Assembly (NCBI GenBank): GCA_041671225.1
Contig: JBAZBY010000001.1
Location: 622,940-686,939 of the forward strand
Length of the DNA stretch: 64,000 nt
Origin: Patescibacteria group bacterium
Lineage (GTDB): Bacteria; Patescibacteriota; Patescibacteriia; JBAZBY01
Direction of reading: 5' to 3'
Part shown: in pieces, positions 32,908 to 63,806 of the stretch
Layout of the letters: every line of letters starts with the position of its first letter
Numbering within the stretch: the stretch's first letter is position 1
The notes under the pieces: model-generated
Database searches by the model: none
Told to the model about the DNA's origin: nothing
What the model saw: the letters and a program-made list of their open reading frames with translations, nothing else
Made by a program: the position numbers and the translations under genes

Positions 32908-32928
32908 AAGTGATTATGAGAATGTAAG

Positions 32929-43059: not shown

Positions 43060-43248
43060 GTGACAAACAACGTGATGGGTTTAAATAATAAAGTACTTGC
43101 CGAGGCATTCTTCTGGTTTGCCATTACCACGGCAATCTTTGGCGTTGCAACACAGCTTTCTCAGCAGCTTATCTTTGCGAGTCCGTTTTTCTACATCGAG
43201 CTTGCAATGTTTGGTATGCTCGGAGCAATCTACACCAGCCGCAAATAG
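43060..43248 (+). CDS. small hypothetical membrane protein
   Basis: 62 aa, two hydrophobic segments; weak support. Confidence 0.25.
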   Translation: MTNNVMGLNNKVLAEAFFWFAITTAIFGVATQLSQQLIFASPFFYIELAMFGMLGAIYTSRK

Positions 43249-43420
43249 GGCGGACGGTTCATGTATCCTGTCTACTCGCCTCGTCGCGAAGCGGGCCGGC
43301 AGGCAGGCTTGCCCCCACCCTGTACCAGTCGCCTTTGGATCCGGTACAGGGCTATGCCTTTAGGGTGCTTTTGTATAGAGCTTGCCCGGCACCTAGCGCG
43401 CAGCGAGGAGTGGCGCGGGG

Positions 43421-43449
43421 TTGACGCCCGCAAAAACTTTGGGTAGCCT
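43421..43449 (+). promoter_or_regulatory. candidate promoter TTGACG-N17-TAGCCT upstream of tRNA-Glu
   Basis: ttgacg 43421-43426, 17-nt spacer, tagcct 43444-43449; overlaps the hairpin below. Confidence 0.3.
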
Positions 43450-43466
43450 GTCATGGCTACTTTTTT
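43443..43466 (+). terminator. hairpin + T6 run (possible terminator)
   Basis: gtagcc-tgtcat-ggctac followed by tttttt. Confidence 0.4.
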
Positions 43467-43514
43467 GCGGCTCGTCCGCTTCGCCAAAGGTGAGTGAGAC
43501 GAGGCACGCAACGT

Positions 43515-43589
43515 GGCCCCATCGTCTAATGGTTAGGACGCCAGGTTCTCATCCTGGTAATAGGGGTTCGATTCCCCTTGGGGCTACCA
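43515..43589 (+). tRNA. tRNA-Glu (anticodon CTC), CCA encoded
   Basis: ggcccca-tc-gtct-aatggtta-ggac-g-ccagg-ttCTCat-cctgg-taat-agggg-ttcgatt-cccct-tggggct-a-cca. Confidence 0.88.
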
Positions 43590-43771
43590 TACATACGGCC
43601 GCCATTCATGTGGCGGGCGGATGTATGGTATTCTTAGAAGGAGAATCGAACGGGCAGAAGCGAGACAAGCCGCTTGCCAAAGGCGCGGCGTAGGCGAGCG
43701 ATCGGTTCATGCAAGCACGCGCAGCATGAACCGCTGCCCAGGACAACGAGCCCGCCAAACAGCGGGCGAGG

Positions 43772-43793
43772 CGGAATTCCCCTTGGGGCTACC
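43772..43793 (+). repeat. duplicated tRNA-Glu 3'-end fragment (att-like), left copy
   Basis: ggaattccccttggggctacca; 19 nt identical to the tRNA-Glu 3' end. Confidence 0.6.
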
Positions 43794-43977
43794 ACTACAA
43801 AACGTTCCGACATTTCCCCAGATTTTTCATGGGCGCGGTTTGCGGCTGCAAAGGCTGCGGGATGTGGTGCATTGCCATCAAGAATCCATACACGCCTGCA
43901 CAGGACCTTTTCCGCGCCGACCTCGTGCTGGATTCGCTGGAAAATATGAATGAAACAATTCTTGCGCGCATTTCGGA

Positions 43978-44208
43978 GTGATTGATACGCGCGTCACAAA
44001 TACGGCAGATTTCATGTATAATACAAAAGCTATGCCAGAAATCATCAATACCTATCTCCTCACCGACCCGGAAACCGCGCTCCCGATGAATCGAGACGAT
44101 TTTTATGCTGAGCAGATTGCTGCCTTTAAAAAGGATGGAAAACCGACGCGGGCGAATGATGTTGTGCAGGTCTTTCTCTTCAGGTCGAACGGAGAATTAC
44201 TCGTTTAA
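43978..44208 (+). pseudogene. possible truncated Nudix-family N-terminal fragment
   Basis: 76-aa ORF ending ...NDVVQVFLFRSNGELLV (Nudix beta-strand start pattern), then a premature stop. Confidence 0.25.
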
Positions 44209-44341
44209 AAACGCGCAACGGAATCGCTTGTCGCCGCTTGCCGCTTTTGCGCTAGGCATGTAGGCCACGCCCTTGAAAAATTGCCAAAACGAGATAGCAT
44301 GAAGGGTATGGAATTAGAGCAACACTTCTCACGAGTCGAAC

Positions 44342-45271
44342 ATGCCGATATTTAGTTCGATCCTTGCCATTGCTGGCCTTTCGCTTTTTGAGACCATCAG
44401 CAGCATCGATAATGCGGTGATCAATGCCGAGGTGCTCTCCACCATGAGCCAGCGCGCACGGCGTTGGTTTCTCGTGTGGGGGCTCTTGTTCGCTGTGTTC
44501 ATCATCCGCGGTTTCCTGCCGTGGGCGATCGTTTGGGCGACCTCGCCCTCGCTCGGGCCCATCGGCGCGTTCACGGCATCGTTCAGCGGTGACCCGAAGG
44601 TCCACGCGGCCATTGAAGCATCAGCGCCGATCCTGCTTGCGGGCGGCGGCATTTTTCTCGTCTTTCTATTCTTCCACTGGCTCTTTTTGGAGCAGAAGAA
44701 CTTCGGCCTTCCGGGCGAGCGGTTCTTCATGCGCCAGGGTGTGTGGTTTTACACGGTGGTGTCCGTCATTCTTCTGGTGTCCGTGACTCTCGCCATTCGC
44801 ATGAATCCTTTGATGGCGCTCGGTGCCGTGGCCGGCTCCACGGCATTCTTCATCACGCACGGGTTCAAAGAGCAGGCGGAGAAGCAGGAGAAAGAGCTCA
44901 TGAAGCAGCACCTCTCCGATGCGAGTAAGATATTGTATCTTGAGGTCATTGACGCGACATTCTCCATTGACGGCGTGCTTGGCGCCTTCGCATTCACGCT
45001 GTCCGTGCCGCTCATCATCCTCGGCAACGGCCTTGGCGCAGTGATCGTGCGGCAACTGACCATCGGCAACATCTCGCGCATCAAGCGCTATCCCTTCCTC
45101 AAGAACGGCGCCATGTATTCCATCCTCGTGCTGGGGAGCATCATGCTACTGGATGCCTTTGGCTTGCACATCCCGCAATGGCTCTCCCCGGTGGTGACCT
45201 TCGTGACCATCGGCTATTTCTTCTGGAGATCCGTGCGCACAGGCCCGGCTCCCATACAAACCGCATCGTAA
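44342..45271 (+). CDS. TerC-superfamily (DUF475-like) integral membrane protein
   Basis: multi-TM; ETISSIDNAVINA motif; GC-rich. Confidence 0.5.
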   Translation: MPIFSSILAIAGLSLFETISSIDNAVINAEVLSTMSQRARRWFLVWGLLFAVFIIRGFLPWAIVWATSPSLGPIGAFTASFSGDPKVHAAIEASAPILLAGGGIFLVFLFFHWLFLEQKNFGLPGERFFMRQGVWFYTVVSVILLVSVTLAIRMNPLMALGAVAGSTAFFITHGFKEQAEKQEKELMKQHLSDASKILYLEVIDATFSIDGVLGAFAFTLSVPLIILGNGLGAVIVRQLTIGNISRIKRYPFLKNGAMYSILVLGSIMLLDAFGLHIPQWLSPVVTFVTIGYFFWRSVRTGPAPIQTAS

Positions 45272-45649
45272 ATGGAATATTCAAAGCATATCGGCCTTCC
45301 CGCGCGCTTCAAGCGGGTTGCCCCATTGCCCACGGGTACACGCATTGGTTATGCGTTTGCACTGGCCATTGGTTTTGGGATTGCAGCGGCCGCGCTCTTT
45401 AAAAACCTGCAGCCGCCAGAAGCATTTGACAGCTTTGGCGGCATTGCGGTCGGCATGCTCATGCTTTTCATTGGATTTTTAGTTTTTCTTGTGACAGTGT
45501 TCGTCGCGCCTGTGCAATTCAAGCGGTATACGAATGGAACGGCGGTGTTGATGACGCTAGCGTGGGACATTGTTATTGCGCTGGTATTGCTCATAGTGTA
45601 TTTTGGACTCGAGTTGCTCGGGTCATCTGAAATACGCACCATTCAATAG
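45272..45649 (+). CDS. hypothetical small membrane protein
   Basis: 125 aa, 3-4 TM segments. Confidence 0.4.
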   Translation: MEYSKHIGLPARFKRVAPLPTGTRIGYAFALAIGFGIAAAALFKNLQPPEAFDSFGGIAVGMLMLFIGFLVFLVTVFVAPVQFKRYTNGTAVLMTLAWDIVIALVLLIVYFGLELLGSSEIRTIQ

Positions 45650-45736
45650 GATATTTTTTTAACCTGTGCGCATGTGGAGCCGCAGTTCCCCCCTTGTCGG
45701 GCGAATTTTGCTATACTGTATTCGTTATACCACCAT

Positions 45737-46819
45737 ATGAAATTCAATCCATCGTCATATCTTTCCGTTCTGCGCAAGGCCACAAAACGCCCTGGCCCGC
45801 GCCCCGGTGCGGAACTTGTTCCGGTGAAGAAGACCGGTATCCCCACCACGATCCATCGGATGACGTATTCCCCGGAGCAGGTGACGGAAGAGGACGTGAA
45901 GGATCCCTCGGTATTGCATCGTCCCCGAGGCAGTGGCGTGCAGTGGATCGATGTGGCCGGACTGGAAGATATTGCAACTTTGGAAAAGGTCGCCGCCGCA
46001 TTCCACTTGCACTCGCTTGTCCTTGAGGACATCGTCCACACGAATCAACGGCCCAAGTTCGAGCGCTACGATGACATCATCTATATCGTCGCGCGCATGC
46101 TCACCATAGACCCGAAGACATCGGAGATCGCGGAAGAACAGGTGAGCATCGTCCATGGCAAAGGGTTCGTGATCCTCTTTCAGGAGAACCCCGGAGATAT
46201 CTTTGAGGACCTGCGCAATCGGATCCGGGCGAATGTCGGTCGGGCGCGCATGTCCGGTGCGGACTACCTGGTCTATTCCTTGCTCAGCACGCTCGTGGAC
46301 AGCTTTTATGATATCCTTGAGGAGATCGGCGAGCAGACGGAGTTCTTTGAGGAAAAGATCATCGCAGAACCGAACCGGAACGTCATCGGGGGGATCCACG
46401 ATCTGAAACAGCAGATCATCGTCCTGCGCCGTTCCATATGGCCCATCCGCGAGGTGGTTCTGCGCCTTCTGGATGAAGACCCCGGCTTGTTCCATAAAGA
46501 GACGCGGTTCTTCCTCCGCGATGTGGGCGACCATGCCATTCAGGCTGTGGACACAGTGGAAACGTACCGCGATCTGCTTTCCGGCCTCACCGACCTGTAC
46601 GTCTCCAGCATCTCCAACCGTACCAATGAGGTGATGAAGGTGCTCACCATCATCGCGACCATCTTCATTCCCTTGACGTTCATCGTCGGCCTCTACGGCA
46701 TGAACTTCAGGTACATGCCGGAACTTGAGCAGCGGTGGGGTTATCCCGCCATCCTCATTCTGATGTTCATCATTGCAATGGGCATGCTTGGGTACTTCAA
46801 GCGCAAGCGCTGGTTCTAA
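45737..46819 (+). CDS. corA: CorA-family Mg2+/Co2+ transporter
   Basis: C-terminal two TM helices with GMNF signature (YGMNFRYMPEL); start taken at internal ATG of the GTG-initiated ORF. Confidence 0.85.
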   Translation: MKFNPSSYLSVLRKATKRPGPRPGAELVPVKKTGIPTTIHRMTYSPEQVTEEDVKDPSVLHRPRGSGVQWIDVAGLEDIATLEKVAAAFHLHSLVLEDIVHTNQRPKFERYDDIIYIVARMLTIDPKTSEIAEEQVSIVHGKGFVILFQENPGDIFEDLRNRIRANVGRARMSGADYLVYSLLSTLVDSFYDILEEIGEQTEFFEEKIIAEPNRNVIGGIHDLKQQIIVLRRSIWPIREVVLRLLDEDPGLFHKETRFFLRDVGDHAIQAVDTVETYRDLLSGLTDLYVSSISNRTNEVMKVLTIIATIFIPLTFIVGLYGMNFRYMPELEQRWGYPAILILMFIIAMGMLGYFKRKRWF

Positions 46820-47187
46820 GCTTTTTCCAAAGACCCCGCGGCGCTTTCCTTCCTGACCTACGCCCGTTTTTCTGTACAATATTGTATTGTACTGCAGAAG
46901 AGGAGAATCATTCACCCGGCTACGAAAGCACGCCGCGCAGGATGCATGGCATGAGGAATGACAAAATTGAGAAGGGCTAAGTGGTGGAGAAACGCGAGTG
47001 CCCATCAAATGCAGAGTTCTATAATTTTCTCCTCTTTGATTTTTGCTACACTATGCAGGTATAAGCACGACAAAAGTACCACTATGGAAAAACCAAATCG
47101 TGAGATTCAGATAAACAAGGCATCCATTGCAGTCTCATTCACTGGACTCATGACAGTGGTTTTCATCTAACGGAGTTCTAAGGCAGT

Positions 47188-47210
47188 CGGAATTCCCCTT
47201 GGCAATACCA
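47188..47210 (+). repeat. duplicated tRNA-Glu 3'-end-like fragment, right copy
   Basis: cggaattccccttggcaatacca (19/23 identical to the left copy). Confidence 0.5.
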
Positions 47211-47287
47211 TGTGACGACTGTGTTTATTCAAAGCGCGTAGCGGCATTTCTGTTTGATTACGTATTGTGCCTTTCTAAGTCGATACA

Positions 47288-48196
47288 ATGAGAGAGAATA
47301 AAGTCACACATATCCAAATACCATCCATTAGCATCGGACTTGGTGGTATTATGCTCATGTGGCTTACCGTTGGGTTTTCCGTTCCCTTGGTGAATATTCT
47401 GCACGATTTTCCGGCTGAGCAGTTATTGTTCATTCGGGGATTTGTGACAATCATCGTCTTGCTTCCGTGGCTCTTGCGGGAACGACTCGCGGTCAGCAGG
47501 AAGAATGTGCTGTTGGCGCTTTCTTTTGGGTTGGCTTCCATCGGATTATTCGCCGGTACGCGCATCTGGGGGCCGAACCCGACCATCATCGTTTTTTCCG
47601 CATCACCGATACTCAACGTGCTGTTTGCCCGCTGGCGCGGCCGAAGGATCGGCATACCCCCTATCGCTGCATTCATCACATTGTTTCTTGGGATTATCGT
47701 CATGCTTCAGCCATGGGCTGTGCAGGGGGAATTTCATCTCAGCGGCTTACTCTGGAGTCTTTTTGGCATGACCATGAATGCCGTTTTTCAAGAGATCCTG
47801 GGGCAGAGCAGTAATGCTTCTCCGCTTAGCCGCTCATTGTGGCAGTCGTTTGGATGCATTGCCGTTGGCGGGTTATCGATTCTATGGGTGCCATGGTTGT
47901 GGGCAATAGCGGAAGGACATCAGGTATGGTCACTCATCGGATTTGGGCTTCTCTCCGGAGTGTTGAATTTGCGAAGCAACACATTGGCGTTTGATCATCT
48001 GCCGACTGCGGTGGCAAGCATACTCGCGGCTGGAGCAGCTCCGGCCACGATCATCATCAGCAATTGGCTCTTGCATACGACGCTCTCTGTTGCGCAGTGG
48101 GGTGGCGTTGCTCTGGCAATGGCCAGCGTGGCTTATCTGAGTGCATGGTTAGGGAAGAAATCCTTTGGCACAAAAGGAGTGGCGGTTCAGGATTAA
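47288..48196 (+). CDS. EamA/DMT-superfamily transporter
   Basis: 302 aa, about 10 TM helices, duplicated EamA-like halves. Confidence 0.6.
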   Translation: MRENKVTHIQIPSISIGLGGIMLMWLTVGFSVPLVNILHDFPAEQLLFIRGFVTIIVLLPWLLRERLAVSRKNVLLALSFGLASIGLFAGTRIWGPNPTIIVFSASPILNVLFARWRGRRIGIPPIAAFITLFLGIIVMLQPWAVQGEFHLSGLLWSLFGMTMNAVFQEILGQSSNASPLSRSLWQSFGCIAVGGLSILWVPWLWAIAEGHQVWSLIGFGLLSGVLNLRSNTLAFDHLPTAVASILAAGAAPATIIISNWLLHTTLSVAQWGGVALAMASVAYLSAWLGKKSFGTKGVAVQD

Positions 48197-48249
48197 TTGC
48201 AACACGGAATACAAAGCACCGGGTTGTTTTTGTATGGTAGAATAAAATC

Positions 48250-48882
48250 ATGAGCACACTTCTTCTCACATCAGACTCCAAAGTTCTCCACAATAGTCTT
48301 GCAGGTGCCGTCGGTAAGCCTGAAAAAGAACTTAAGGCGCTCTTCATGATTACTGCATCTATGGGTATTCCTGATCGTGCGTATGTTGCAAGACACCGCG
48401 AGGTTATGCAAGACAGGGGTATTGCGTTCGAAGAGTATGATTGTGAGGGGAAGTCATTGGAAGAACATCGTGCAGCTTTTGAGGGTCAAGATGTTCTTAT
48501 TGTTATCGGCGGGAATCCGTTCCACCTTCTGGAAGCAGTGCGAGTGAGTCGTTTTGATCAGGCGGTTTATGAATTTATTGATCGTGGCGGAGTGTACAGC
48601 GGAGGAAGCGCTGGTGCATACATCGCTTGTCCGGATATTGGTATCAGTGAACTTAGCCACTGGAATACGCCGGAGTACCGCGGTGGTCTTTCCGATCTTA
48701 CCGCTATGGATCTCGTACCGTTTTATATTAAGGCGCATTATCTTCCGGAGCAGGAAGAAGAGATGCGCGCGTTTGCTGAGAAAGCCGCATACCCTTTGCG
48801 TGTATTAAAAGATGGACAAGGCTTGCTCGTACGAGACGGGAATGTGGAGTTTATCGGAGAAGGTGAGGAGGTTATACTCTAA
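48250..48882 (+). CDS. peptidase S51 (dipeptidase E / cyanophycinase-like) family protein
   Basis: VLIVIGGNPFHLLEAV ... GGVYSGGSAGAYIACPDI (Ser nucleophile region). Confidence 0.65.
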   Translation: MSTLLLTSDSKVLHNSLAGAVGKPEKELKALFMITASMGIPDRAYVARHREVMQDRGIAFEEYDCEGKSLEEHRAAFEGQDVLIVIGGNPFHLLEAVRVSRFDQAVYEFIDRGGVYSGGSAGAYIACPDIGISELSHWNTPEYRGGLSDLTAMDLVPFYIKAHYLPEQEEEMRAFAEKAAYPLRVLKDGQGLLVRDGNVEFIGEGEEVIL

Positions 48883-49616
48883 TGCATATCAAACTCCTCC
48901 AGTGGAACATTCTCTTTGATGAGAAATACGAAAATATTCTCCGCGAATTGAAGAAAATCAATGCGGATGTGTTGTGTCTGGAAGAGGCGACAACGCAGAG
49001 TCCGGTGAACCGCAAGCGCCACGTTGCGGATGATCTTGCGCGCGCTCTTGGCATGCACGTGCATTATGGTCGGGCCGGGCACTGGGAAGGCAGACACTTC
49101 GGCAATGCCGTGCTTTCGCGTTTTCCGATCGTGAAGCGCAGGATGATTCCCCTCAAGATCCACGAGGCGTATCACGATACCCCTGAATACATCAAGCGGG
49201 GGTATGTTGAAGCGACGCTGAATATTCGCGGAAAACGGTTGGCTGTCGGCGTGACGCATCTGGCATTCCGACGCCGTTTTCATCATACACCGGTAAAAGT
49301 GAAGGAGGCGGACAGGCTTATGGAGATCGTCCGGAAGCGCAAGAAAAATTACATCCTTTGTGGGGATATGAATGCCCTTCCGCAGAGCTATACGATCCGG
49401 CATTTTAAAAAATGCCTTGTGAATGCCGGACCTCCATACCGTGAAAAATCATTTACGACTATCCCGTTTACGTTTGAGGGATGGCACGCCCGCCGTTTGC
49501 ACTACCGCGTGGATTATTGTTTTACCACGCCCGATATCCGCGTTAAGACTGCCCGCTTTCTTGGGGATGTGAAAGCCTCTGACCATCTCCCCATTCTTAT
49601 TGAGCTTGAAGTGTAA
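48882..49616 (+). CDS. endonuclease/exonuclease/phosphatase (EEP) family protein
   Basis: LLQWNIL N-terminus and C-terminal SDHLPI motif. Confidence 0.7.
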   Translation: MHIKLLQWNILFDEKYENILRELKKINADVLCLEEATTQSPVNRKRHVADDLARALGMHVHYGRAGHWEGRHFGNAVLSRFPIVKRRMIPLKIHEAYHDTPEYIKRGYVEATLNIRGKRLAVGVTHLAFRRRFHHTPVKVKEADRLMEIVRKRKKNYILCGDMNALPQSYTIRHFKKCLVNAGPPYREKSFTTIPFTFEGWHARRLHYRVDYCFTTPDIRVKTARFLGDVKASDHLPILIELEV

Positions 49617-49649
49617 CACTTCGCACCCCTTGACCGATTACCTTATTAT

Positions 49650-50174
49650 ATGACTGAAGCGGAAATCCAGGAGTTTGTGCAGCAGGCTCGCGACGGGGAC
49701 GCAGAGGCGTTTGGTGTTCTTTTTGAGGAATTTAGTGATCGCGTATACCGTTTTCTCGCCATGCGCGTTTCAGAGAAGGAAACAGCGGAAGATATCACGC
49801 AAACGGTGTTTGTTGAAATGATTCAGTCGCTCGGTCGATATAAGAAGCAAAGGAATGCAAAGTTTTCGACCTGGCTTTTCCAAATTGCGCGTTTTCGGCT
49901 CATTGATCATTATCGCAGTAAAAAGGCGCACATACCGCTCGAAGACGTTCCAGAGCCCGTTCAGGAGCCCGCACACGCAGATCCAGTCCAGGACAGGGCA
50001 TTACGTGACGCTTTGAACACATTACCAGAACAACAGCGCACCGTACTGCACCTTCATTTTTTTGAGGACATGTCTCCCCAGGAAATTGCGGTCGTCCTAA
50101 AGACAACAGCAATCAATGTCCGCGTCATTCAGCATCGAGCCATTAAAGTTTTGCGCACTCTTATTACCATATAA
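49650..50174 (+). CDS. ECF-type RNA polymerase sigma factor (sigma-70 region 2 and 4)
   Basis: region 2 (VYRFLAMRVSEKETAEDITQTVFVEMIQSL) and region 4 HTH (LPEQQRTVLHLHFFEDMSPQEIAVVLKTT...). Confidence 0.85.
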   Translation: MTEAEIQEFVQQARDGDAEAFGVLFEEFSDRVYRFLAMRVSEKETAEDITQTVFVEMIQSLGRYKKQRNAKFSTWLFQIARFRLIDHYRSKKAHIPLEDVPEPVQEPAHADPVQDRALRDALNTLPEQQRTVLHLHFFEDMSPQEIAVVLKTTAINVRVIQHRAIKVLRTLITI

Positions 50175-50175
50175 C

Positions 50176-51504
50176 ATGCAATTCCCATTTTTATATAACA
50201 TACGTGAAAACAACGACGATCTTCGCACGCGTTTTCAGGCTATGCAGACCCCGCATCTTTCTGTTGAGCACAAAAAGCGTATGCTTGGGGAATTACAAAA
50301 AACATTTAAAAATGTAACAACAAAGGATGACGCTCGATATAGGATGCGTCAACCATTTTATTTTTTTAGACAAACAAAACCTATGATCCCGATACTCGCA
50401 GCAATCGTTATTCTTCTCGGTGGTACCTTTGGCACGGCAGCAGCTGCTGATGCCGCAAAGCCCGGCGATGTATTTTTTGGCGTTGATCGTGCCGCAGAAC
50501 AAACAAGTCTCGCGTTTGCCTTTAGTGGCGAGAAGAAGGCTCGCATACGCACGAATATTGCAGAAGAGCGCGAACGCGAACGCGTGGAGCTGCAACAGGA
50601 AGGCCGCACAGAAGATGCCGCTCAGGCAGAGGAGCATGCGGATGTTGCGCTTGTCCAAGCCATTGAGACGATCTCTGATGTTCGTGTAAAAATAGAGGAA
50701 AAGGGGAATGACGATGCGTTGCAAGCGCTTACCGAGGTTGAAAATCGTCTTGAGGCATTACGCCAGATGCGTGATGACCGGGATGGTGATGCAGATGACT
50801 CTGGTGATGACATGACGGCGAAGGGATTAACAGAGGCCGAGGTGCACATTGAGAATGGCGTTGCAGAGGTACAGGTGGAATACAACGATGAAAAGCAGAC
50901 GTTCGTTCTGGTGACGAGCGATCGCGATGCCATTATTGCCGAGATTGTCGCACGAACCGGCGCGACAGAAGAAGCAGTGCGCGCTGCTGTGCGTATTGAG
51001 GAGAACGGCGTTGTTGATGAACCTATTGATGATGTGTCTGATGATGACAGCGCTGATAGCAGTGAAGACATCAATGATGATTCTCATGCAACCAATAGCA
51101 GCAATGGCGAGCAGGAACAAGAGCAGGAACAAGAGCAGGAACAAGAGCAGGAACAAGAACAGGAACAAGAGCAAGAACACGTGAACGGCAACACCAACCA
51201 GAATCAGGAGCAAGAGCAGGAGCAAGAACAGGATCGTGAAGAAGAGCATGCAAACACCAATACATCGGATGATGAGGAGCAAAGTGATGACGAACAGAAT
51301 CAGGAACAAGTGCGAAACGAAATTCGCGTTGAAGTGAACCAAGAAGATGGCAAGGCAGAGATCCACACTCGCATCGGCAGCGCTGAGATGGAATGGGAGC
51401 TCAAGACAACAAATCAGAACACAATCCTACTGAGCATCAGCGGAAAAACTGGACTTTCCGGCGCACAGATTCAGGCCGTGTGGCAATATAGCGTCGAAGA
51501 CTAA
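50176..51504 (+). CDS. putative anti-sigma-factor-like single-pass membrane protein with highly acidic extracytoplasmic domain and (EQ)n repeat
   Basis: lies directly after the ECF sigma gene; TM helix MIPILAAIVILLGGTFG; start may be 50176 or 50242. Confidence 0.5.
   Translation: MQFPFLYNIRENNDDLRTRFQAMQTPHLSVEHKKRMLGELQKTFKNVTTKDDARYRMRQPFYFFRQTKPMIPILAAIVILLGGTFGTAAAADAAKPGDVFFGVDRAAEQTSLAFAFSGEKKARIRTNIAEERERERVELQQEGRTEDAAQAEEHADVALVQAIETISDVRVKIEEKGNDDALQALTEVENRLEALRQMRDDRDGDADDSGDDMTAKGLTEAEVHIENGVAEVQVEYNDEKQTFVLVTSDRDAIIAEIVARTGATEEAVRAAVRIEENGVVDEPIDDVSDDDSADSSEDINDDSHATNSSNGEQEQEQEQEQEQEQEQEQEQEQEHVNGNTNQNQEQEQEQEQDREEEHANTNTSDDEEQSDDEQNQEQVRNEIRVEVNQEDGKAEIHTRIGSAEMEWELKTTNQNTILLSISGKTGLSGAQIQAVWQYSVED
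51109..51180 (+). repeat. 12-nt coding tandem repeat (gagcaggaacaa)n encoding (EQ)n
   Basis: six near-identical 12-nt units; a second shorter block at 51208-51233. Confidence 0.85.
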
Positions 51505-51544
51505 TCATTAACATCCTAGGCGTTCTTTTCCAAAAGCCCCTGGC

Positions 51545-51563
51545 ACCCCGTCCGGGGTTTTTG
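51545..51563 (+). terminator. possible rho-independent terminator after the anti-sigma-like gene
   Basis: acccc-gtcc-ggggt followed by tttt. Confidence 0.4.
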
Positions 51564-51714
51564 GTTTATTATTTGAATAGAGTATGCAGCGTATAAAAAA
51601 CACACCCGGGGATTTTTGCCATGGGTGCTGCGATGCAACAATACGCTCGTCAAGAATTCTGGTATACTATTATTGTGTACATGTGTTAAGAAAGAGACAC
51701 GAACTTCACATACT

Positions 51715-54489
51715 ATGAGCCGAATCAGACGGGTAATCTTCATTATTATCGCACTCGCGTTTCTTGGAGTACTCCTCCTTGGGGGCGCCTTTAGGCTCAT
51801 CACTGATTGGTGGTGGTTTCAATCGATTAACCACACCACTTTTTTTACAACAATCCTCAGCTCACAGCTGCTTGTTGGTTTTGGGGTTGCGCTTTTTTCC
51901 TTCCTTTTTGTCTGGGTGAATTTACTACTCGTTCGGCGTTTTGCGGCACATCATTCTCGATCCTTCACCTTCCGTGCGGGCATAAAGGCCGGCATACCAC
52001 AAGTGAAGACCGTTGAGGTACAAAGCATTATTACTCGGCTCTCTTTTCCTCTTTCGTTGCTCATCGGGATCATGATGGGGTTTGCTGCAGCGAGTCAATG
52101 GGATACAGTCTTACTTTTTATGAATCAGACGGCGTTTCATGAAACAGACCCGCTTTTTGGACGGGACGTTGCGTATTATGTATTTACACTACCCTTCTTG
52201 CAGAATGCACTGTCTTTTGCTTTTACGCTCATTGTTATCGCAATTGTGGTAGCGTTCGTTCTGTACAATGTTCTTGGTGTTCTGGATTTTCGCGGCGGGA
52301 TACGTCAGGCGTTCCGTGGTTCCTTAAAGACCGTTGTTTCTGCGGCACGGCGGCATCTTGCACTTCTTGTTGCACTCTACTTTTTTCTTGTCGCGCTGAA
52401 GGATTACTTTGTTGATATTCCCAATCTCGTTTATTCTGCGGCAGGTTCCTTCACAGGCGCAGGGTATACCGACGTGACAATTCGCATTCCGCTTTTACAG
52501 ATCGGCGCAGTGCTTGCTTCACTTGTTGGAGCAGTACTCATCATTCATGCATTCCGTTCCAGTACCCGCCAGGTTGTAGGAACCATTTTTCTTTATTTCT
52601 TCATAACGATTATCGGTGGCGCAGTGGTACCAGGTATCGTGCAGCGTTTTATTGTGTCGCCGAATGAGCTTGTAAAAGAGGAGAAGTACATTGCATACAA
52701 TATTGCCGCAACGCAGGCTGCGTATGGCGTGGATACATTGGAAAAGCGCGACCTGTCCGGTGACACTTCGCTCACACAAGCAGATTTGGAAGCAAATTCC
52801 GGGACCATCAGAAACATCCGGTTATGGGAGCGCGCACCGTTACTGGATACCTTTGGTCAGATTCAGGAGATTCGCACATATTATGACTTTGTGTCCCTTG
52901 ATAACGACCGGTATACCATTGACGGAGAATTGCGCCAGACGCTTCTTTCTCCGCGTGAACTTTCTGCCGCTGCACTCCCGCAGCGCAATTTCATTAATGA
53001 GCATCTTACCTTCACGCACGGATTCGGGCTTACGCTCGGGCCGGTGAATGAGGTGACCCCAGAAGGCCTGCCCGTGCTCTTTATTAAGGATCTTCCGCCA
53101 GCATCGACAAAAAGTGAATTGGATGTGACCAGGCCGGAGATCTATTATGGGGAACTCGCAAATGATTTTGTCGTTGTGAATACTGACGCAGAGGAATTCA
53201 ACTATCCATCGGGTGAAGAGAATGTTTTTTCCACGTATGAAGGAGAAGGGGGAGTACCCGTGAATTCACTCTTCCGTAAACTTCTTTTTGCGCTTCGGTT
53301 TGGCTCAAACAAGCTCTTCTTTTCCAACGATATTACGACAGATTCCAAGATCATGTTCTATAGGGATATTCATGAGCGCGTACGACGATTGCTGCCGTTT
53401 TTGAAATTTGATCAAGATCCATATCTTGTGGTGCGGGAAGATGGCTCACTGACATGGATGTATGACGCGTATACAACGACGAATCGCTATCCGTATGCAG
53501 AACGCAGAACAGATGATCTCTTTGACCAAAATAAAACTGCGTCGGCAATTCCCGGAACATTGAATTACATCCGTAACAGCGTCAAGATCACTATTGATGC
53601 ATATGACGGAAGTATGACACTTTATACCGCAGACGCAGAGGATCCGCTCATCCAGACGTATGCAAAGATCTTTGATGATTCATTTGTGCCGCTGACAGAG
53701 ATGCCGGAGGACCTTCGTTCTCATATACGATATCCGGAAGATATTTATCGCTATCAAGCAGATATTTATAGCGTGTATCACATGGAAGAGCCGCAGATTT
53801 TTTACAATAAGGAAGATGAATGGCAGATCCCCACAAACACCGGTCAGGATGTGGGCGACCCCATCATGCGTCATCTTGTGATGAGCCTGCCAGATGAAGA
53901 GAATGAGGAGTTCATTTTGATGCTGCCGTATACTCCGCGCGGCAAGGATAACCTTGCGGCATGGATGGTTGCACGCAATGATGGCGAAAACTATGGAGAA
54001 TTGGTTGTGTATCGCTTCCCCAAGCAGGAGCTTGTCTTTGGCCCAACGCAGATCCGCAACCGCATCAACCAGAACCCAGACATTTCGCGGCAGATCTCCC
54101 TCTGGGACCAGCGCGGCTCAGAAGTGATTCAGGGGAGCCTGTTGGTGATTCCCATCGAATCCTCCTTGCTCTATGTGCAGCCGCTGTATTTGCGCGCGGA
54201 AGGCGGACGCATCCCGGAACTCAAGCGGGTGATCGTGGCAAACGGCAATAACATCGCCATGGCAGAGACGCTGGACCTCGCGCTCGCGCAGCTCTTTACT
54301 GATGCACCGCTGACGGTTGATGAAACAGTGGATGAGGCCACAACAACCATAGAAACGACAACCAACAGCACGGTGCTGGAGCAAGCACAGGCCGCGTATG
54401 AACGCGCCCTTGCCGCGCAAAAACGCGGTGACTGGGCAACGTATGGCACAGAGATCACCCTGCTTGGCGAGTTGTTAGGGGAGTTGTAA
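51715..54489 (+). CDS. UPF0182-family large membrane protein
   Basis: N-terminal TM helices with ITDWWWFQS motif; 924 aa from internal ATG of ORF 51616..54489. Confidence 0.75.
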   Translation: MSRIRRVIFIIIALAFLGVLLLGGAFRLITDWWWFQSINHTTFFTTILSSQLLVGFGVALFSFLFVWVNLLLVRRFAAHHSRSFTFRAGIKAGIPQVKTVEVQSIITRLSFPLSLLIGIMMGFAAASQWDTVLLFMNQTAFHETDPLFGRDVAYYVFTLPFLQNALSFAFTLIVIAIVVAFVLYNVLGVLDFRGGIRQAFRGSLKTVVSAARRHLALLVALYFFLVALKDYFVDIPNLVYSAAGSFTGAGYTDVTIRIPLLQIGAVLASLVGAVLIIHAFRSSTRQVVGTIFLYFFITIIGGAVVPGIVQRFIVSPNELVKEEKYIAYNIAATQAAYGVDTLEKRDLSGDTSLTQADLEANSGTIRNIRLWERAPLLDTFGQIQEIRTYYDFVSLDNDRYTIDGELRQTLLSPRELSAAALPQRNFINEHLTFTHGFGLTLGPVNEVTPEGLPVLFIKDLPPASTKSELDVTRPEIYYGELANDFVVVNTDAEEFNYPSGEENVFSTYEGEGGVPVNSLFRKLLFALRFGSNKLFFSNDITTDSKIMFYRDIHERVRRLLPFLKFDQDPYLVVREDGSLTWMYDAYTTTNRYPYAERRTDDLFDQNKTASAIPGTLNYIRNSVKITIDAYDGSMTLYTADAEDPLIQTYAKIFDDSFVPLTEMPEDLRSHIRYPEDIYRYQADIYSVYHMEEPQIFYNKEDEWQIPTNTGQDVGDPIMRHLVMSLPDEENEEFILMLPYTPRGKDNLAAWMVARNDGENYGELVVYRFPKQELVFGPTQIRNRINQNPDISRQISLWDQRGSEVIQGSLLVIPIESSLLYVQPLYLRAEGGRIPELKRVIVANGNNIAMAETLDLALAQLFTDAPLTVDETVDEATTTIETTTNSTVLEQAQAAYERALAAQKRGDWATYGTEITLLGELLGEL

Positions 54490-54605
54490 AAGCCTCTCTC
54501 CTTGACAGAACGGGAGTGATAGGTTAGTATCAGTTGTTCATCGAATATCGAGCTATGTGCTATCTCTCGCTATTCAGAACGAGAGATTACTACATAACGA
54601 TATTC

Positions 54606-55862: not shown

Positions 55863-55954
55863 AGGGATTTTTGTGTCTAGAGGTTGACCGGGGTTGCGGA
55901 TACCAGTGCGTACTACGCCACGGGCAGAATCTCTTTTTAACTACCCGCGACCTA

Positions 55955-55963
55955 TGTTATACT
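55955..55963 (+). promoter_or_regulatory. extended -10 element TGTTATACT upstream of the heliorhodopsin gene
   Basis: tgnTATACT 31 nt upstream of ATG; RBS aaggggga at 55979-55986. Confidence 0.4.
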
Positions 55964-55993
55964 TTCTGCGTTAAAAACTAAGGGGGATTTTTT

Positions 55994-56776: not shown

Positions 56777-56881
56777 TAATTAGCCTGAACTGACGAAAAA
56801 CCTGCCCGTGCTCATCTTCTTGACAAGAAGGAGCGTTTGGCGTAGATTTGATTGTTCACTTTTTGCCGGATAGTCCGGTAT

Positions 56882-56930
56882 GGGTGGTGCGCGCACAGAT
56901 CGGCCCCGCGCGCGCCACCCAATTTTTTTA
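56882..56930 (+). terminator. strong rho-independent terminator after heliorhodopsin
   Basis: 13-bp stem gggtggtgcgcgc/gcgcgcgccaccc (one mismatch), then aattttttta. Confidence 0.65.
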
Positions 56931-56963
56931 TCCGCTTTCGCCCTGGCGCAGGCAGTGTTTCAT

Positions 56964-56992
56964 TTGACATGGGTGCTTTCTCATTCTAGGGT
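56964..56992 (+). promoter_or_regulatory. candidate promoter TTGACA-N17-TAGGGT
   Basis: ttgaca 56964-56969, 17-nt spacer, tagggt 56987-56992; RBS aggagg at 57028. Confidence 0.35.
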
Positions 56993-57038
56993 GAACCTGT
57001 CCAACTCTCTGTGCTCTATGCACATACCAGGAGGCAGT

Positions 57039-57410: not shown

Positions 57411-57529
57411 TCCCCGTGCGGCATCGCGCCGCTTTTGTCCATCGGGCGGCAGACCATTCCCAACGTCTGCCGCCCCTCCCTTTTATTTACAATAAAAAAA
57501 CGAGCCCCCTTTTGGTAAGCGGTGGGGGC

Positions 57530-60379: not shown

Positions 60380-60943
60380 ATGAAAAATACGTCCATTCTA
60401 CTTATCATCGTTCTCGTGATCATTGTTGTTGCGGGTGGTATTTATTATTTCGTCACGCAGACAGGTGATGAAGAGGTGCCGGCAGAAATAAATGTGAACG
60501 CGACATCCATCAATGCAACGATCACCGATAATCTTCCAGATCCATCATTAACTGATGAAAATTGGGATCCAGCAACGCGAGGCGACCTGACAGTGAATGC
60601 AGAAGGAACTCATAATGATGTTACATTTTCATTTTCCACAGCGAGTCGCGTGTCATCATTCCAAGGCGTTGATGCTGAAGAGGGGAATGAATTCGTTGTG
60701 GTGTATTTCGGTACGATTCCCTTTGCAGATCGCGATGCAGTCGTGCAATGGCTTGGCAAAGACGTTGCCATTGTTGATGGGGCGGGTACCAGTTATGCAC
60801 TTCAGAGCTTTCAGGTTATTACTGAATATTCACAGCCCAGTGAAACAGGATTTTTCCAGTTTGCCGTTCCCACAGGTGGGAGTAATTACCGCATTCAGTT
60901 TGGTGAAGGAGAAGACGCAACAACTGTCGGCCTCGGCTTTTAG
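60380..60943 (+). CDS. hypothetical secreted/membrane-anchored protein
   Basis: N-terminal signal anchor; Thr/Asp-rich. Confidence 0.45.
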   Translation: MKNTSILLIIVLVIIVVAGGIYYFVTQTGDEEVPAEINVNATSINATITDNLPDPSLTDENWDPATRGDLTVNAEGTHNDVTFSFSTASRVSSFQGVDAEEGNEFVVVYFGTIPFADRDAVVQWLGKDVAIVDGAGTSYALQSFQVITEYSQPSETGFFQFAVPTGGSNYRIQFGEGEDATTVGLGF

Positions 60944-61000
60944 TCTTTTGCGGGTACTCCGGGCGTTCTCTTTGCGGAGCGCGCGTTTGGCATTGGCGCT

Positions 61001-62131
61001 ATGAAGATTGGCATCCTCTCCCAAACGTATTACCCGATCAAGGGTGGCATTGCAGAACACGTTCATGCAACGGCAACAGAACTGCGCAAGCGCGGGCATG
61101 AGGCAACCATCATTACCGCGAATTTTAACCGCGGAGATGAGGAATGGAGTGATGGCGTAGAGCGCATTGGGCGGGATCTGACGCTGCCGTTCAATGGTGC
61201 ATTCGTGAATATAACCATTGGCGCGCGACTCGCCGCAGATTTTCGGCGTCTTGAGAAGAAGTACAATTTTGATGTGCTGCATATTCATAACCCGCCAGAT
61301 CCCGTGTTGCCTATCGTTGCGACATTGAATGCAAAAGCGCCGATCGTGGGAACCTTTCATACGTATAAACCATCGAGTCTTGCATATAAGATCATGCAGA
61401 GACCGCTGGACCACCGCGTTATTCAAAAGCTTAGGGTGCGTATTGCGGTTTCTGAAGCTGCCAAATCTTTTTTCAGCAAGTATTTTACCGGCCCTTGGGA
61501 GATCCTTCCCAATGGTGTGAATATTGAGCGCTTTCATCCTTCAAACGCACCCATGCCTCATCTCGCCGGTGGACCTCCCACGATCCTCTTTGTGGGGCGT
61601 ATGGATCCGCGCAAAGGGGTGAATATCATGCTTGATGCGTTCACGCGGCTTGCAAAAGATGCTCCAGATGCCCGTCTTGTGGTGGTCGGTGGAGGGATAC
61701 TTATCCATCACTATAAGCGGTATGTGCCTTTGGATTTGCGCCCGCGCGTGCAGTTCATGAATTATGTCTCCTGGCAGGATCTTCCGCGATACTACGCGAG
61801 CGCAGATATTTGCTGCTTCCCAGCATATGGAAGGGAAAGTTTTGGTATTGTATTGGCTGAGGCAATGGCTGCTGGAAAACCCATGGTCGCATCTGATATT
61901 GTGGGGTACCGTGCGGTCATTGATGATGGAAAAAACGGACTCCTTGCCAAAACAGCAGATGCCGCGGATTTTGCGAGGAAACTCAAAATTCTGCTCGATG
62001 ATAAGGATCTCCGCAGGAACATGGGGGAGCATGGCCGCCATAAGGCAGAAACGCACTACGCTTGGCCTGCAATCGTTGATAAACTTGAAGGGTATTACAG
62101 GCAGGCAATCAGCGCCCATCGGGAGGGTTGA
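61001..62131 (+). CDS. GT4-family glycosyltransferase (PimA-like)
   Basis: MKIGILSQTYYPIKGGIAEHVHATATEL N-terminus; C-terminal EsFGIVLAEAMAaGkP motif. Confidence 0.8.
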   Translation: MKIGILSQTYYPIKGGIAEHVHATATELRKRGHEATIITANFNRGDEEWSDGVERIGRDLTLPFNGAFVNITIGARLAADFRRLEKKYNFDVLHIHNPPDPVLPIVATLNAKAPIVGTFHTYKPSSLAYKIMQRPLDHRVIQKLRVRIAVSEAAKSFFSKYFTGPWEILPNGVNIERFHPSNAPMPHLAGGPPTILFVGRMDPRKGVNIMLDAFTRLAKDAPDARLVVVGGGILIHHYKRYVPLDLRPRVQFMNYVSWQDLPRYYASADICCFPAYGRESFGIVLAEAMAAGKPMVASDIVGYRAVIDDGKNGLLAKTADAADFARKLKILLDDKDLRRNMGEHGRHKAETHYAWPAIVDKLEGYYRQAISAHREG

Positions 62132-62155
62132 CGCCTCAAAACACTTTGCTATACT
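62128..62155 (+). promoter_or_regulatory. promoter TTGACG-N16-TATACT of the hrcA operon
   Basis: ttgacg 62128-62133; tatact 62150-62155; immediately upstream of CIRCE. Confidence 0.5.
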
Positions 62156-62158
62156 GCA

Positions 62159-62185
62159 TTAGCACTCTGAGTGAAGGAGTGCTAA
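62159..62185 (+). promoter_or_regulatory. CIRCE operator (HrcA binding site)
   Basis: perfect TTAGCACTC-N9-GAGTGCTAA. Confidence 0.9.
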
Positions 62186-62194
62186 ACTGTATAC

Positions 62195-62896
62195 ATGACA
62201 CAGGACATACAACTCTCAGAACGTCAGGAAGATTTACTTAAACTTATCGTTGAAGCGTTCATTGATGAGGCAGAACCAGTTTCATCCAAGTATCTCGTTG
62301 AGGTGCATGGGCTTTCCTGGTCGCCGGCGACCATCCGTAATGATATGGCGTTTCTGGAACAGACGGGTTTTATTACGCATCCGCATACCTCTGCAGGGCG
62401 TATTCCAACAGAATTCGGCTGGAAATACTATTTGAAGCAGCAGCGCGTCGCACCATTGGATGCCAAGGAAGCATCGGCACTCAAGCGCGCCGCAGGCCAG
62501 ACAAAAGATGCAACGCAGCGTACAAAAGAGCTCGCAAAGTCTCTGGCTGATATTTCCCAGCAGACGGTGATTGTCGGGTTTGCGCCACATGACGTCTATT
62601 ACACGGGAATTGCGAATCTTGTGCGACATCCTGAATTCCAAAGCATGGATGTGCTCTCAGAAATGACTGGTATTGTGGACCACTGTGATGATGTCATCTC
62701 TCGCTTGTTCCAGTCACTGCAGCCAGAACCGCAGATTTTACTTGGTAGCGAGAATCCCTTTGGTGCCGCCGCAGGGACAATCGTGAGTCGCTGGGGGAAG
62801 AAGCCGCACGGCATTTTTTGTCTTCTTGGTCCCATACGCATGAATTATCCAAAAAATATTGCCCGTATATCATTCATTCAACATCTGCTGACGTAA
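62195..62896 (+). CDS. hrcA: heat-inducible transcription repressor HrcA, short 233-aa form
   Basis: LSERQEDLLKLIVEAFIDEAEPVSSKYL...SPATIRNDMAFLEQTGFITHPHTSAGRIPT. Confidence 0.8.
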   Translation: MTQDIQLSERQEDLLKLIVEAFIDEAEPVSSKYLVEVHGLSWSPATIRNDMAFLEQTGFITHPHTSAGRIPTEFGWKYYLKQQRVAPLDAKEASALKRAAGQTKDATQRTKELAKSLADISQQTVIVGFAPHDVYYTGIANLVRHPEFQSMDVLSEMTGIVDHCDDVISRLFQSLQPEPQILLGSENPFGAAAGTIVSRWGKKPHGIFCLLGPIRMNYPKNIARISFIQHLLT

Positions 62897-62898
62897 GT

Positions 62899-63384
62899 AT
62901 GGATACACACCACGAACAGAAAAAAGACAAACATCGACGCGAGCTTGATGAAATAAAAATGAAAGCCGAGGAGTATTTGAGTGGATGGAAGCGCGCTCAG
63001 GCTGATTATCAAAATTTGCAAAAGCAATCAGAGAAGGAGAAGTTGGAGATAGGGAGTTTTGCACGCTCGGCGGTGCTTGTGCAGATGCTGCCGATCCTCG
63101 AAAATCTTCGCCGTGCGTTTCATCACGTGCCCGATGAACAGAAAAAAGCGGAATGGGTGGTCGGCCTTCAGCATATTCAGACACAGATGGAAGAACTTTT
63201 GACGCAATATCAACTCACGGAGATTGACGCAGAAGGCAAACAATTCGACCCACACCTGCATGAAGCGGTCGCGCGCGAAAAGCGCGACGGCGTTGAAAGC
63301 GATGTTATTCTTGAAGTGCTGCAGAGCGGATGGAAGTATGGCGAACGGGTTTTGGTTCCAAGTAAGGTCAAAGTCGCAGAATAA
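62899..63384 (+). CDS. grpE: nucleotide exchange factor GrpE
   Basis: coiled-coil N-terminus, RAQADYQNLQKQ, C-terminal GERVLVPSKVKVAE. Confidence 0.85.
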   Translation: MDTHHEQKKDKHRRELDEIKMKAEEYLSGWKRAQADYQNLQKQSEKEKLEIGSFARSAVLVQMLPILENLRRAFHHVPDEQKKAEWVVGLQHIQTQMEELLTQYQLTEIDAEGKQFDPHLHEAVAREKRDGVESDVILEVLQSGWKYGERVLVPSKVKVAE

Positions 63385-63401
63385 ATATTAATCGAACTCA
63401 T

Positions 63402-63806
63402 ATGCGTATTACACCTTGGCGCCCACTTTTTCCGGAGATGTTCGAAGATGAATTCTGGGGAGAGCAGTGGCATTTCAGCCCAGCGATCGATGTGTATGAG
63501 GATGGTGATACCGTCATCATTCAGTCACCGATTGCAGGTATAGATCCAAAATTACTGAAAATTGAAATTGAGGAAAACGTCCTCAAACTTTCTGGTGAAA
63601 TGAAAAAGCAATCTGAAATTGACGAAAAGAATTATTACCGCAAAGAAGTTCGCCAGGGTAGTTTCTCTCGCGCCGTTGCGCTCCCGCATGCTGTTGATGC
63701 TGATAGGGCCAATGCGACCTATAAAGATGGCGTGTTGATGATTCAGATCCCAAAGCGTGAAGAAATGAAGCCGAAATCCGTAACCGTAAATGTTGAGGAG
63801 CAATAA
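63402..63806 (+). CDS. Hsp20/alpha-crystallin small heat-shock protein
   Basis: alpha-crystallin domain PAIDVYEDGDTVIIQSPIAGIDPKLLKIEIEENVLKLSGE... Confidence 0.85.
   Translation: MRITPWRPLFPEMFEDEFWGEQWHFSPAIDVYEDGDTVIIQSPIAGIDPKLLKIEIEENVLKLSGEMKKQSEIDEKNYYRKEVRQGSFSRAVALPHAVDADRANATYKDGVLMIQIPKREEMKPKSVTVNVEEQ

Follow-up and report, generated by a model that had tools for sequence, protein, structure and literature searches.

A conserved tRNA-Glu-linked element and a putative decayed mosaic islet at a tRNA 3'-end repeat in a Patescibacteria genome

A restored tRNA gene together with a displaced fragment of its 3' end is the hallmark of islands placed in tRNA genes by tyrosine integrases (PMC4383910), while the tRNA-linked repeats (TLRs) of Escherichia coli, including rtT of the tyrT operon, are units downstream of a tRNA, present in one to five copies per locus and of unknown function, in which the final 18–19 bp are the tRNA 3' end (PMC8144298). 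The window analysed here, a stretch of 64,000 nt from a Patescibacteria group bacterium (assembly GCA_041671225.1, contig JBAZBY010000001.1, positions 622,940 to 686,939), contains an intact tRNA-Glu(CTC) gene whose 3' end (direct repeat 1, DR1) recurs downstream as DR2 and, in degenerate form, as DR3, with 3.4 kb of DNA between these two copies. DR2 forms the 3' terminus of a conserved structured element which distant relatives possess without having this 3.4-kb block, and the repeat is no by-product of the block's integration. The DR2–DR3 interval is read here, with slightly better than even confidence, as a decayed and immobile mosaic islet in a hot spot of tRNA 3'-end repeats, into which genes for a DUF475 protein and a CorA channel were imported separately.

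As in Islander-type or P4-like tDNA islands, an intact tRNA gene stands at one end, displaced copies of its 3' end lie distally in direct orientation (19/19 identities in DR2 and 16/19 in DR3), and the bracketed DNA lacks synteny and is in part compositionally atypical. Unlike such islands, the locus has no integrase or integrase remnant, its compositional limits lie off the repeats, its content is a mosaic of gene stumps and genes of different affinities, and its proximal repeat sits in a conserved element instead of forming a private scar. With the TLRs it shares a unit lying directly downstream of the tRNA in the same orientation, which occurs in the window, in a Candidatus Kerfeldbacteria metagenome-assembled genome (L008) and in the metagenomic loci L168 and L162, and whose 3' end repeats that of the tRNA of the same host without a mismatch (window and L168 19/19, L008 22/22). 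The whole unit of the window (43590–43794) measures 205 nt, and the tRNA-Lys gene of the window is accompanied by two short units of this TLR-like kind. Unlike the E. coli TLRs, the tRNA-Glu unit matches neither rtT nor any other family by sequence or in Rfam, is conserved between lineages that diverged deeply, contains an antisense T-arm motif and is followed by kilobases of variable DNA.

Two further systems bear comparison. In the ICESt1 group, cis-mobilizable elements (CIMEs) are att-flanked segments without a recombination module of their own, arranged in tandem at a tRNA-type target, with which the order tRNA-[205 bp]-DR2-[3.4 kb]-DR3 is compatible; however, no cognate integrase-bearing element was found in the viral, plasmid and phage collections, and mobilisation in trans would be purely conjectural. 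Hypervariable islands of the Prochlorococcus type are flanked by repeated tRNA 3' ends and share with this locus a small streamlined genome and a tRNA with partial 3' copies followed by variable transporters and stumps, although the comparison here rests on one distant relative and not on population-level variability in the window's lineage.

The 19-mer ATTCCCCTTGGGGCTACCA, which closes tRNA-Glu (43571–43589), recurs exactly at 43776–43794 and with three mismatches at 47192–47210, while CGGAATTCCCCTTGG occurs solely at 43772 and 47188. Both recurrences had been reported in the initial annotation and are real, with the proximal coordinates off by one (43775–43793 for the tRNA end and 43771 for the mutual pair), and the derivation of the repeats from the tRNA-Glu 3' end proposed there is upheld, DR1, DR2 and DR3 being all in direct orientation. 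The repeats are beyond chance, as three sites with at most three mismatches to the 19-mer were found against 0.01 expected from shuffles. A 5' extension, AG[G/T]CGGA, is common to DR2 and DR3 and is not present in tRNA-Glu, thus these two copies are mutually related and were not derived from the tRNA independently. Upstream of DR3, none of the motifs of the structured element was found beyond 7 nt, and a weak match to its covariance model (R1) is confined to the repeat; directly 3' of DR3 follow TGTGACGACTG... and an EamA gene.

An independent Logan contig from another assembler (L004) equals 43649–51138 exactly, and an ENA contig is identical to the window over 21 kb but for a 12-nt length difference at 51.1 kb; since independent contigs agree, the DR2–block–DR3 arrangement is no artefact of one assembly, and this explanation was rejected. 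The Logan contig break at 43561–43648 is uninterpretable as a sign of population heterogeneity, as the tRNA k-mers are common to other organisms. The 12-nt length polymorphism (51120–51147) lies in a (GAG CAG GAA CAA)n repeat for Glu and Gln, which belongs to a 462-aa protein encoded next after an ECF sigma factor.

The tRNA-Glu-linked element is conserved across three deeply divergent Patescibacteria lineages. In the window it comprises an antisense T-arm motif (43638–43651), a helix formed by GGGCAG (43652–43657) and CTGCCC (43734–43739) around variable hairpins and, on the 3' side, the motif AGGACAA, a hairpin (43750–43767) and DR2, ending in ...GGGGCUACCA (43794). L168 (GC 0.375) has the same architecture and likewise closes with 19 nt that duplicate the end of its tRNA, the order common to both being tRNA, hairpin, GAAGG(G/A)GAATCGAACGGGCAGAAG, variable hairpins, CGCTGCCC(C/A)GGACAA, hairpin and tRNA-end copy. 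R1, which was built from the window and L168, recovers the L008 element at E = 3.7e-4. The antisense T-arm copy tracks the T-loop variant of the host, GAATCGAA being found with tRNA TTCGATTC and GATTCGAA with tRNA TTCGAATC. The GC content of the element is 0.62–0.67 in the window, L168 and L008, against only 0.35–0.39 in the flanks of L168, and the element folds far more stably than shuffles (minimum free energy z from -3 to -8), two control non-coding stretches scoring about 0. The comparison rests on three independent sequences, too few for a proper covariation test. The hairpin that begins in the tRNA tail (Table 1) was not flagged as terminator-like, nor was any terminator-like site found between tRNA-Glu and the element; analogous hairpins come after the tRNA in L168 and L008.

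In the Rfam search of the element no family scored above chance, only tRNA reaching the threshold and nothing rtT-like appearing at E<=10. Scanning metagenomes with a pattern for tRNA-Glu(CTC) gave 120 loci, the majority of them from unrelated organisms, and 106 of the loci had at least 300 nt downstream; a downstream copy of the tRNA end was present in only 5 of these 106, L008 among them, and L168/L162 were the only scanned loci to carry the element. L190 was rejected as a repeat-bearing locus, as it merely has a tandem tRNA gene, and a match to R1 in L130 was rejected as it lies in a coding region. For the spacer itself, a second tRNA, tmRNA or split-tRNA gene was rejected (ARAGORN negative, no 5' acceptor strand, T-stem not preserved), as were a group I/II intron, which lacks Rfam support, and an IS200/605-type omega-RNA, as there is no tnpB and the guide of such RNAs is no cis duplication. 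Shorter tRNA-Glu-linked units occur in two other AT-rich metagenomic lineages (L103, 2209–2300; L203, 827–905), consisting of one or two GC-rich hairpins followed by 15–21 nt of the tRNA 3' end, and are unrelated in sequence to the element.

Among the matches listed from a GAPDH scan of 185,579 species genomes, most belonged to unrelated phyla, the best was 64% identical and L008 was the only syntenic genome. L008 (GC 0.578) is distant, its GAPDH being 61% identical, and is collinear with the window over nine genes from a P-type ATPase to GAPDH (43–61% identity), a small membrane protein gene which lies between GAPDH and tRNA-Glu in both, tRNA-Glu(CTC) and the element. In L008, the final 22 nt of the tRNA recur without a mismatch 140 nt downstream of the gene, and 127 nt after this repeat lies a 65-aa stump matching the N-terminus of a Resolvase domain (E=2e-4), for which an IS607 origin was rejected, as it has no N-terminal helix-turn-helix. 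The collinearity is lost precisely at DR2 and regained after 16.8 kb, L008 rejoining the right-hand block of the window a mere 1.5 kb after its tRNA. Judged by synteny, the variable region thus extends from DR2 to ~60.38 kb (~16.8 kb), with the 3.4-kb interval as its proximal fifth, and DR3 would therefore be an internal landmark. A check for absence of the segment in relatives had been proposed initially; it is non-syntenic with the only collinear relative, and the non-synteny runs 13 kb beyond DR3; as an empty site, L008 lacks the block, yet also the next 13 kb, and it is a single distant relative.

The second breakpoint comes from L162, a strain variant of L168, which agrees with it at 99.5% identity over a stretch that starts upstream of the tRNA and reaches ...AATTCCCC within the repeat; beyond the repeat the two diverge, with downstream modules in different order. 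These breakpoints, the recombinase stump of L008 and the gene stumps of the window all point to DNA exchange at the repeat. The shuffled modules downstream of the repeat in L168 (1198–1600) and L162 (reverse strand) each come after GCGGGATT(C/T)C, which resembles the GGCGGGA...ATTCC end of the element, and hold hairpins of the form ACACTT...AAGTGT, an arrangement reminiscent of a small cassette array.

Table 1. Features of the tRNA-Glu(CTC) locus and its surroundings, in window coordinates
Feature	Coordinates	Strand	Basis and remarks
Small membrane protein, 62 aa, last protein gene of the left syntenic block	43060..43248	+	tblastn of a 73-aa ORF of L008, 43096-43263, E=6e-6
tRNA-Glu(CTC), intact	43515..43589	+	ARAGORN; Rfam tRNA, 65 bits
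DR1, final 26 nt of tRNA-Glu(CTC), GGGTTCGATTCCCCTTGGGGCTACCA	43564..43589	+	Repeat family D1
20-bp hairpin beginning in the tRNA UACCA tail, no U-tract after it	43585..43630	+	Inverted repeat I3, 90% complementary
Conserved GC-rich structured tRNA-linked element	43634..43794	+	Motifs common to L168/L162 and L008; model R1; folding z-scores
DR2, AGGCGGAATTCCCCTTGGGGCTACCA	43769..43794	+	Final 19 nt = tRNA-Glu 3' end, 19/19
Probable HAD-family hydrolase, C-terminal stump, 5' side cut near DR2	43829..43981	+	Weak match, E=0.054
NUDIX-family N-terminal stump, 58 aa, ending at an in-frame TAA	44032..44208	+	28 homologues; full-length ones 150-230 aa
DUF475/TerC-family integral membrane protein, 309 aa, intact	44342..45271	+	Pfam DUF475 1e-46, TerC 4e-19
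Predicted membrane protein, 125 aa, start abutting the DUF475 stop	45272..45649	+	ORF list; GC3 0.556
CorA Mg2+/Co2+ channel, 360 aa, intact	45737..46819	+	Pfam CorA 3e-72
Orphan ORF, 70 aa, coding uncertain, AT-rich distal end (GC 0.41-0.45)	46958..47170	+	No Pfam or PHROG match
DR3, AGTCGGAATTCCCCTTGGCAATACCA, degenerate third copy	47185..47210	+	16/19 vs tRNA end, 22/26 vs DR2
EamA-family transporter, first gene past DR3, inside the non-syntenic region	47288..48196	+	Pfam EamA
Right syntenic block, five genes, = L008 13640-17696	60380..63806	+	blastp collinearity, 26-59% identity

Two gene stumps and three intact genes for membrane proteins lie between DR2 and DR3, with no recombinase among them (Table 1). 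The HAD-like stump aligns weakly with residues 191–224 of the 246-aa HAD-like protein 4uav and with CbbY, and has no Pfam match. In the open reading frame (ORF) at 43978–44208, whose composition is host-like (GC 0.455), residues 19–76 align to the first 58 residues of proteins of 150–230 aa, and the similarity to these full-length relatives stops at ~44217, two codons past the stop. The Pfam NUDIX domain starts at about residue 44 in four of the eight homologues tested; the ORF ends ~14 residues into the domain as placed in these homologues and has no Pfam match of its own, and the truncated Nudix gene of the initial annotation is thereby confirmed indirectly. The TAA of the stump (44206–44208) sits where homologues have the conserved Gln of LLxQKRS, and TAA occupies the same codon (L210, 844–846) in a gene of 64% identity that lies on an unrelated Logan contig and whose NUDIX frame stays intact for more than 80 codons beyond. 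This shared TAA could be a coincident C-to-T nonsense change, or could reflect read-through or recoding; TAA is a normal stop elsewhere in the window.

The TerC-like and CorA genes, which had been recognised from the letters of the window, are both confirmed by Pfam. The former matches DUF475 (PF04332) with 160 bits against a cut-off of 27 over profile positions 1–288 of 293, as well as TerC with 69.6 bits, and the latter matches CorA (PF01544) over positions 2–292 of 292, with YGMNF, containing the GMN motif, read in its translation. The 125-aa ORF has only sub-threshold Pfam matches and no PHROG match. The intact cargo probably serves divalent-cation handling, with CorA predicted, by family membership, to act in Mg2+/Co2+ uptake and the TerC-family protein in metal export. 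A 417-aa antisense 'shadow' ORF (45755–47008, -) lies over CorA, and the ENA gene caller picked the antisense strand there (374 aa, no Pfam match) over CorA, which may stem from the high GC content at third codon positions (GC3).

That the segment encodes no integrase, as was also claimed initially, stands: no integrase or recombinase was found among the called genes within +/-10 kb, and none of ten small ORFs in non-coding parts matched a PHROG. In tblastn, the resolvase stump of L008 found nothing in the window. The interval thus differs from Islander-type islands, which carry their integrase inside, and also from an integron-type cassette array, as it has no integrase and its repeats are tRNA-derived and direct, not imperfect palindromes of the attC type. 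Four scans of viral contigs (with the DR2-type repeat, two tRNA 3' ends and the paired motifs of the element) gave zero hits, and blastn of the block against phage and plasmid collections returned only short conserved pieces of corA.

The claim that the enclosed segment is GC-rich is correct as to the enrichment (GC 0.53–0.57 against ~0.48) and not as to its limits, which differ from the repeats, so that no atypical composition bounded by att repeats, as in Islander-type islands, is found. The rise is not uniform: it starts at ~43250, ~265 nt upstream of tRNA-Glu, dips to 0.46–0.48 at 43900–44300, where the stumps lie, returns to high values across DUF475 and CorA and stops at ~46850, ~340 nt before DR3. 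It is an effect of third codon positions, the GC3 of DUF475 (0.774) and CorA (0.745) being 2.5–2.8 standard deviations above the window mean (median 0.49, standard deviation 0.095), while the 125-aa ORF and the NUDIX stump (0.51) are host-like and the genes for ribosomal proteins, EF-Tu, SecY and the P-type ATPase range from 0.40 to 0.47. The proposed tetranucleotide analysis gave a deviation peak over 43.5–47.5 kb, one of three in the window. Further GC3 outliers of the window are purA, a DEAD helicase gene, a gene of metallo-beta-lactamase (MBL) fold and tgt, which makes compositional patchiness a trait of this genome. The stretch of 265 nt at 43249–43514, between the small membrane protein gene and tRNA-Glu, is non-coding and GC-rich (~0.59), has no Rfam match and folds no better than shuffles (z=-0.14); at the matching place L008 has ~400 nt of GC-rich non-coding DNA and a GIY-YIG ORF overlapping the tRNA 5' end.

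DUF475, whose protein records are MFA6512381.1 and MFA6943914.1, has thousands of Patescibacteria homologues at 70–76% identity. The nearest ones (85–89% at the amino acid and 77–80% at the nucleotide level, GC3 0.66–0.77) are located in unrelated contexts on contigs of GC 0.54, whose other shared proteins are merely 28–44% identical to those of the window, and the gene was probably acquired from a Patescibacteria lineage of ~54% GC. For CorA, no homologue above ~56% identity and no close match labelled as Patescibacteria were found in the databases searched; its best homologues are ~50% identical, the named ones belonging to Planctomycetota, Proteobacteria, Nitrospinota and Trichlorobacter, and one top match lies in an archaeal-type neighbourhood (GatD/GatE, diphthamide synthase and ATP-dependent ligase). 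With affinities so different, the two genes do not look like one imported unit. Since a NUDIX gene of host-like composition is cut a short way upstream of DUF475, the most probable course is that the GC-rich segment entered pre-existing DNA, and its entry was probably a separate event.

In the mosaic islet that we favour, the hot spot would be the 3' flank of tRNA-Glu(CTC), with the repeated 3' end of this tRNA as its mark, and the repeats would be sites, or descendants of sites, at which a site-specific recombinase crossed over in the T-loop/T-stem part of the tRNA. By such a crossover, integrases that target tRNA genes restore the gene and displace a fragment of its 3' end. Successive insertions and deletions would have stacked and eroded cassettes at tRNA-Glu, and the recombinase gene would have been lost in the window, with a serine-recombinase stump surviving at the same site in L008. 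The GC-rich DUF475–(125 aa)–CorA segment would have come later by horizontal transfer into already variable DNA, severing the NUDIX gene, and would not have arrived as a single repeat-bounded unit. As the defining integrase is absent, the islet merely resembles a tDNA island and is not demonstrably one. Several points weigh against this reading. The interval contains no integrase, recombinase or remnant of either; the stump of L008, situated on the distal side of the repeat, is perhaps unrelated, and it is of the serine type, the usual associate of tRNA 3'-end duplication being a tyrosine-type enzyme. The GC-rich core (~44.3–46.85 kb) is nested within the repeat interval with its boundaries not at the repeats. 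An identity of 85–89% alone is weak evidence of transfer, since DUF475 is very conserved in Patescibacteria, and for CorA composition is the main argument for a foreign origin. Ordinary rearrangement, or deletion in the distant L008, could account for the extra 16.8 kb, and the conservation of tRNA, element and DR2 argues that DR2 is a functional feature and no scar.

The initial annotation had described a decayed integrative island with attL/attR-like repeats. What persists of this are the tRNA-derived repeats, the non-syntenic DNA, two GC3 outliers and the stumps, joined now by the recombinase stump at the homologous site in L008; what falls is the correspondence of the GC-rich core with the repeats, as well as the att-like role of DR2, which belongs to a conserved element, and of DR3, which is internal, and there is no integrase remnant. 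In its classical form, a single element put into tRNA-Glu by a tyrosine integrase that was later lost, with DR2 (or the tRNA) as attL and DR3 as attR, would explain why direct tRNA 3'-end repeats bracket compositionally atypical, non-syntenic DNA, and a 19-nt repeat from T-loop to CCA is the classic footprint of such events (PMC4383910). We nevertheless consider it unlikely, as the GC-rich core lies between host-like ends and truncates a host-like NUDIX gene, DUF475 has its affinities within Patescibacteria and CorA outside them or with archaea, the element that includes DR2 is present without the block in other lineages, no integrase remnant occurs in the interval and the non-synteny continues past DR3. 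At the other extreme, nothing would have been acquired, the region being native with gene-specific codon bias and its repeats arising by local duplication or chance. DUF475 is indeed a near-universal Patescibacteria gene, and GC3 is also high in other genes of the window, including the housekeeping genes purA and tgt. This is unlikely in view of the composition and the repeat statistics, and we regard it as very improbable: the repeats far exceed the expected number, the GC3 of DUF475 and CorA is raised although highly expressed genes have low GC3, the interval contains gene stumps, collinearity is lost exactly at DR2 and the tetranucleotide deviation peaks over the interval.

Somewhat unlikely, though less so than the classical island, is an origin of the repeats that involves no mobility at all. 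They would then belong to tandem tRNA-linked RNA elements of the TLR/rtT kind, putatively co-transcribed with the tRNA and with tRNA-identical ends serving processing or function, DR3 would be the remnant of a second unit, and the 3.4 kb would have entered by illegitimate recombination. The conservation of motifs and fold in three lineages of genome GC 0.375–0.58, a GC-rich element in an AT-rich genome, as is typical of structured RNAs, with strongly negative folding z-scores, and the constant identity of the repeat with the host's own tRNA end are all consistent with this, as are the E. coli TLRs, which are defined by the same 18–19-bp identity with the upstream tRNA 3' end (PMC8144298), and the tRNA-Lys of the window, whose two very short units leave no room for cargo. 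Against it, the break inside the repeat between L168 and L162 and the end of the L008 collinearity there indicate DNA recombination at the site, and the element's motifs are missing upstream of DR3 beyond 7 nt. The likeness is also compatible with an origin from att sites, for it is not known how the E. coli TLRs arose.

The 160–205-nt element may be a functional module of Patescibacteria, a landing pad which would steer incoming DNA to the tRNA-Glu locus, a proposal that we consider quite unlikely. It would join a structured scaffold to a segment of 19–22 nt always equal to the host's own tRNA end, and might serve a trans-acting recombinase as crossover or recognition site (attI-like) or, with lower probability, be a guide-like RNA whose 'homing' segment is self-matching. 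Hypervariable DNA starting exactly at the 3' end of the element in every lineage would then be mechanistic and not an accident.

Partial tRNA copies are found at other tRNA genes of the window as well, one of them adjoining the GC3 outlier purA. Around tRNA-Lys(TTT) (32783–32858), partial self-copies extend over 32486–32947: upstream lie two 47-nt copies of a variant 5' half (32486–32532 and 32574–32620) and an 18-nt tandem repeat (~32717–32757) ending in a collapsed T-loop/acceptor-like GAGTTCGTCGCACCA, downstream lie 3'-end copies of 17 nt (32889–32905) and 20 nt (32928–32947), and the flanks contain an 11–12-nt inverted repeat, CTGCCCCCATGG ... CCATGGGGGCAG. A truncated second tRNA-Pro(GGG) (4033–4075, -), covering positions 1–42 with 39/42 identities and having a promoter-like TTGCAG-N17-TATAGT, is inverted, 1.7 kb from the intact tRNA-Pro (2281–2355) and directly downstream of purA (4184–5593). 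The latter is the strongest GC outlier of the window (GC 0.624, GC3 0.766) and forms a second case of tRNA debris beside a compositional outlier.

The DNA beyond DR3 (47211–60380), which is non-syntenic with L008, contains host-like genes for EamA, peptidase S51, an EEP nuclease, an ECF sigma factor and UPF0182, together with the GC3 outliers DEAD helicase (54555–55862), an ORF at 56880–57410, the MBL-fold gene (57530–58459) and tgt (58825–59712), whose ORF aligns to the Pfam model only from position 71, so that its start may be misplaced or truncated. A heliorhodopsin gene (55994–56776, Pfam E=4e-100) is also located in this region. A search of 5.8 billion proteins for homologues of the EamA transporter found only itself, although this word-based search may have missed divergent relatives.

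The islet itself is ordinary, and the conserved element is the part worth attention. The locus indicates that foreign genes, in this case for metal-ion transporters, are gathered and eroded at hot spots beside tRNA genes even in candidate-phyla-radiation genomes of ~1 Mb, and GC3 outliers in this genome tend to adjoin tRNA debris. Collinearity between lineages and near-identity between strains both break exactly at the repeat. If the element is functional, it would offer a handle on DNA targeting into reduced genomes, and it might illuminate the unexplained tRNA-linked repeats of E. coli.

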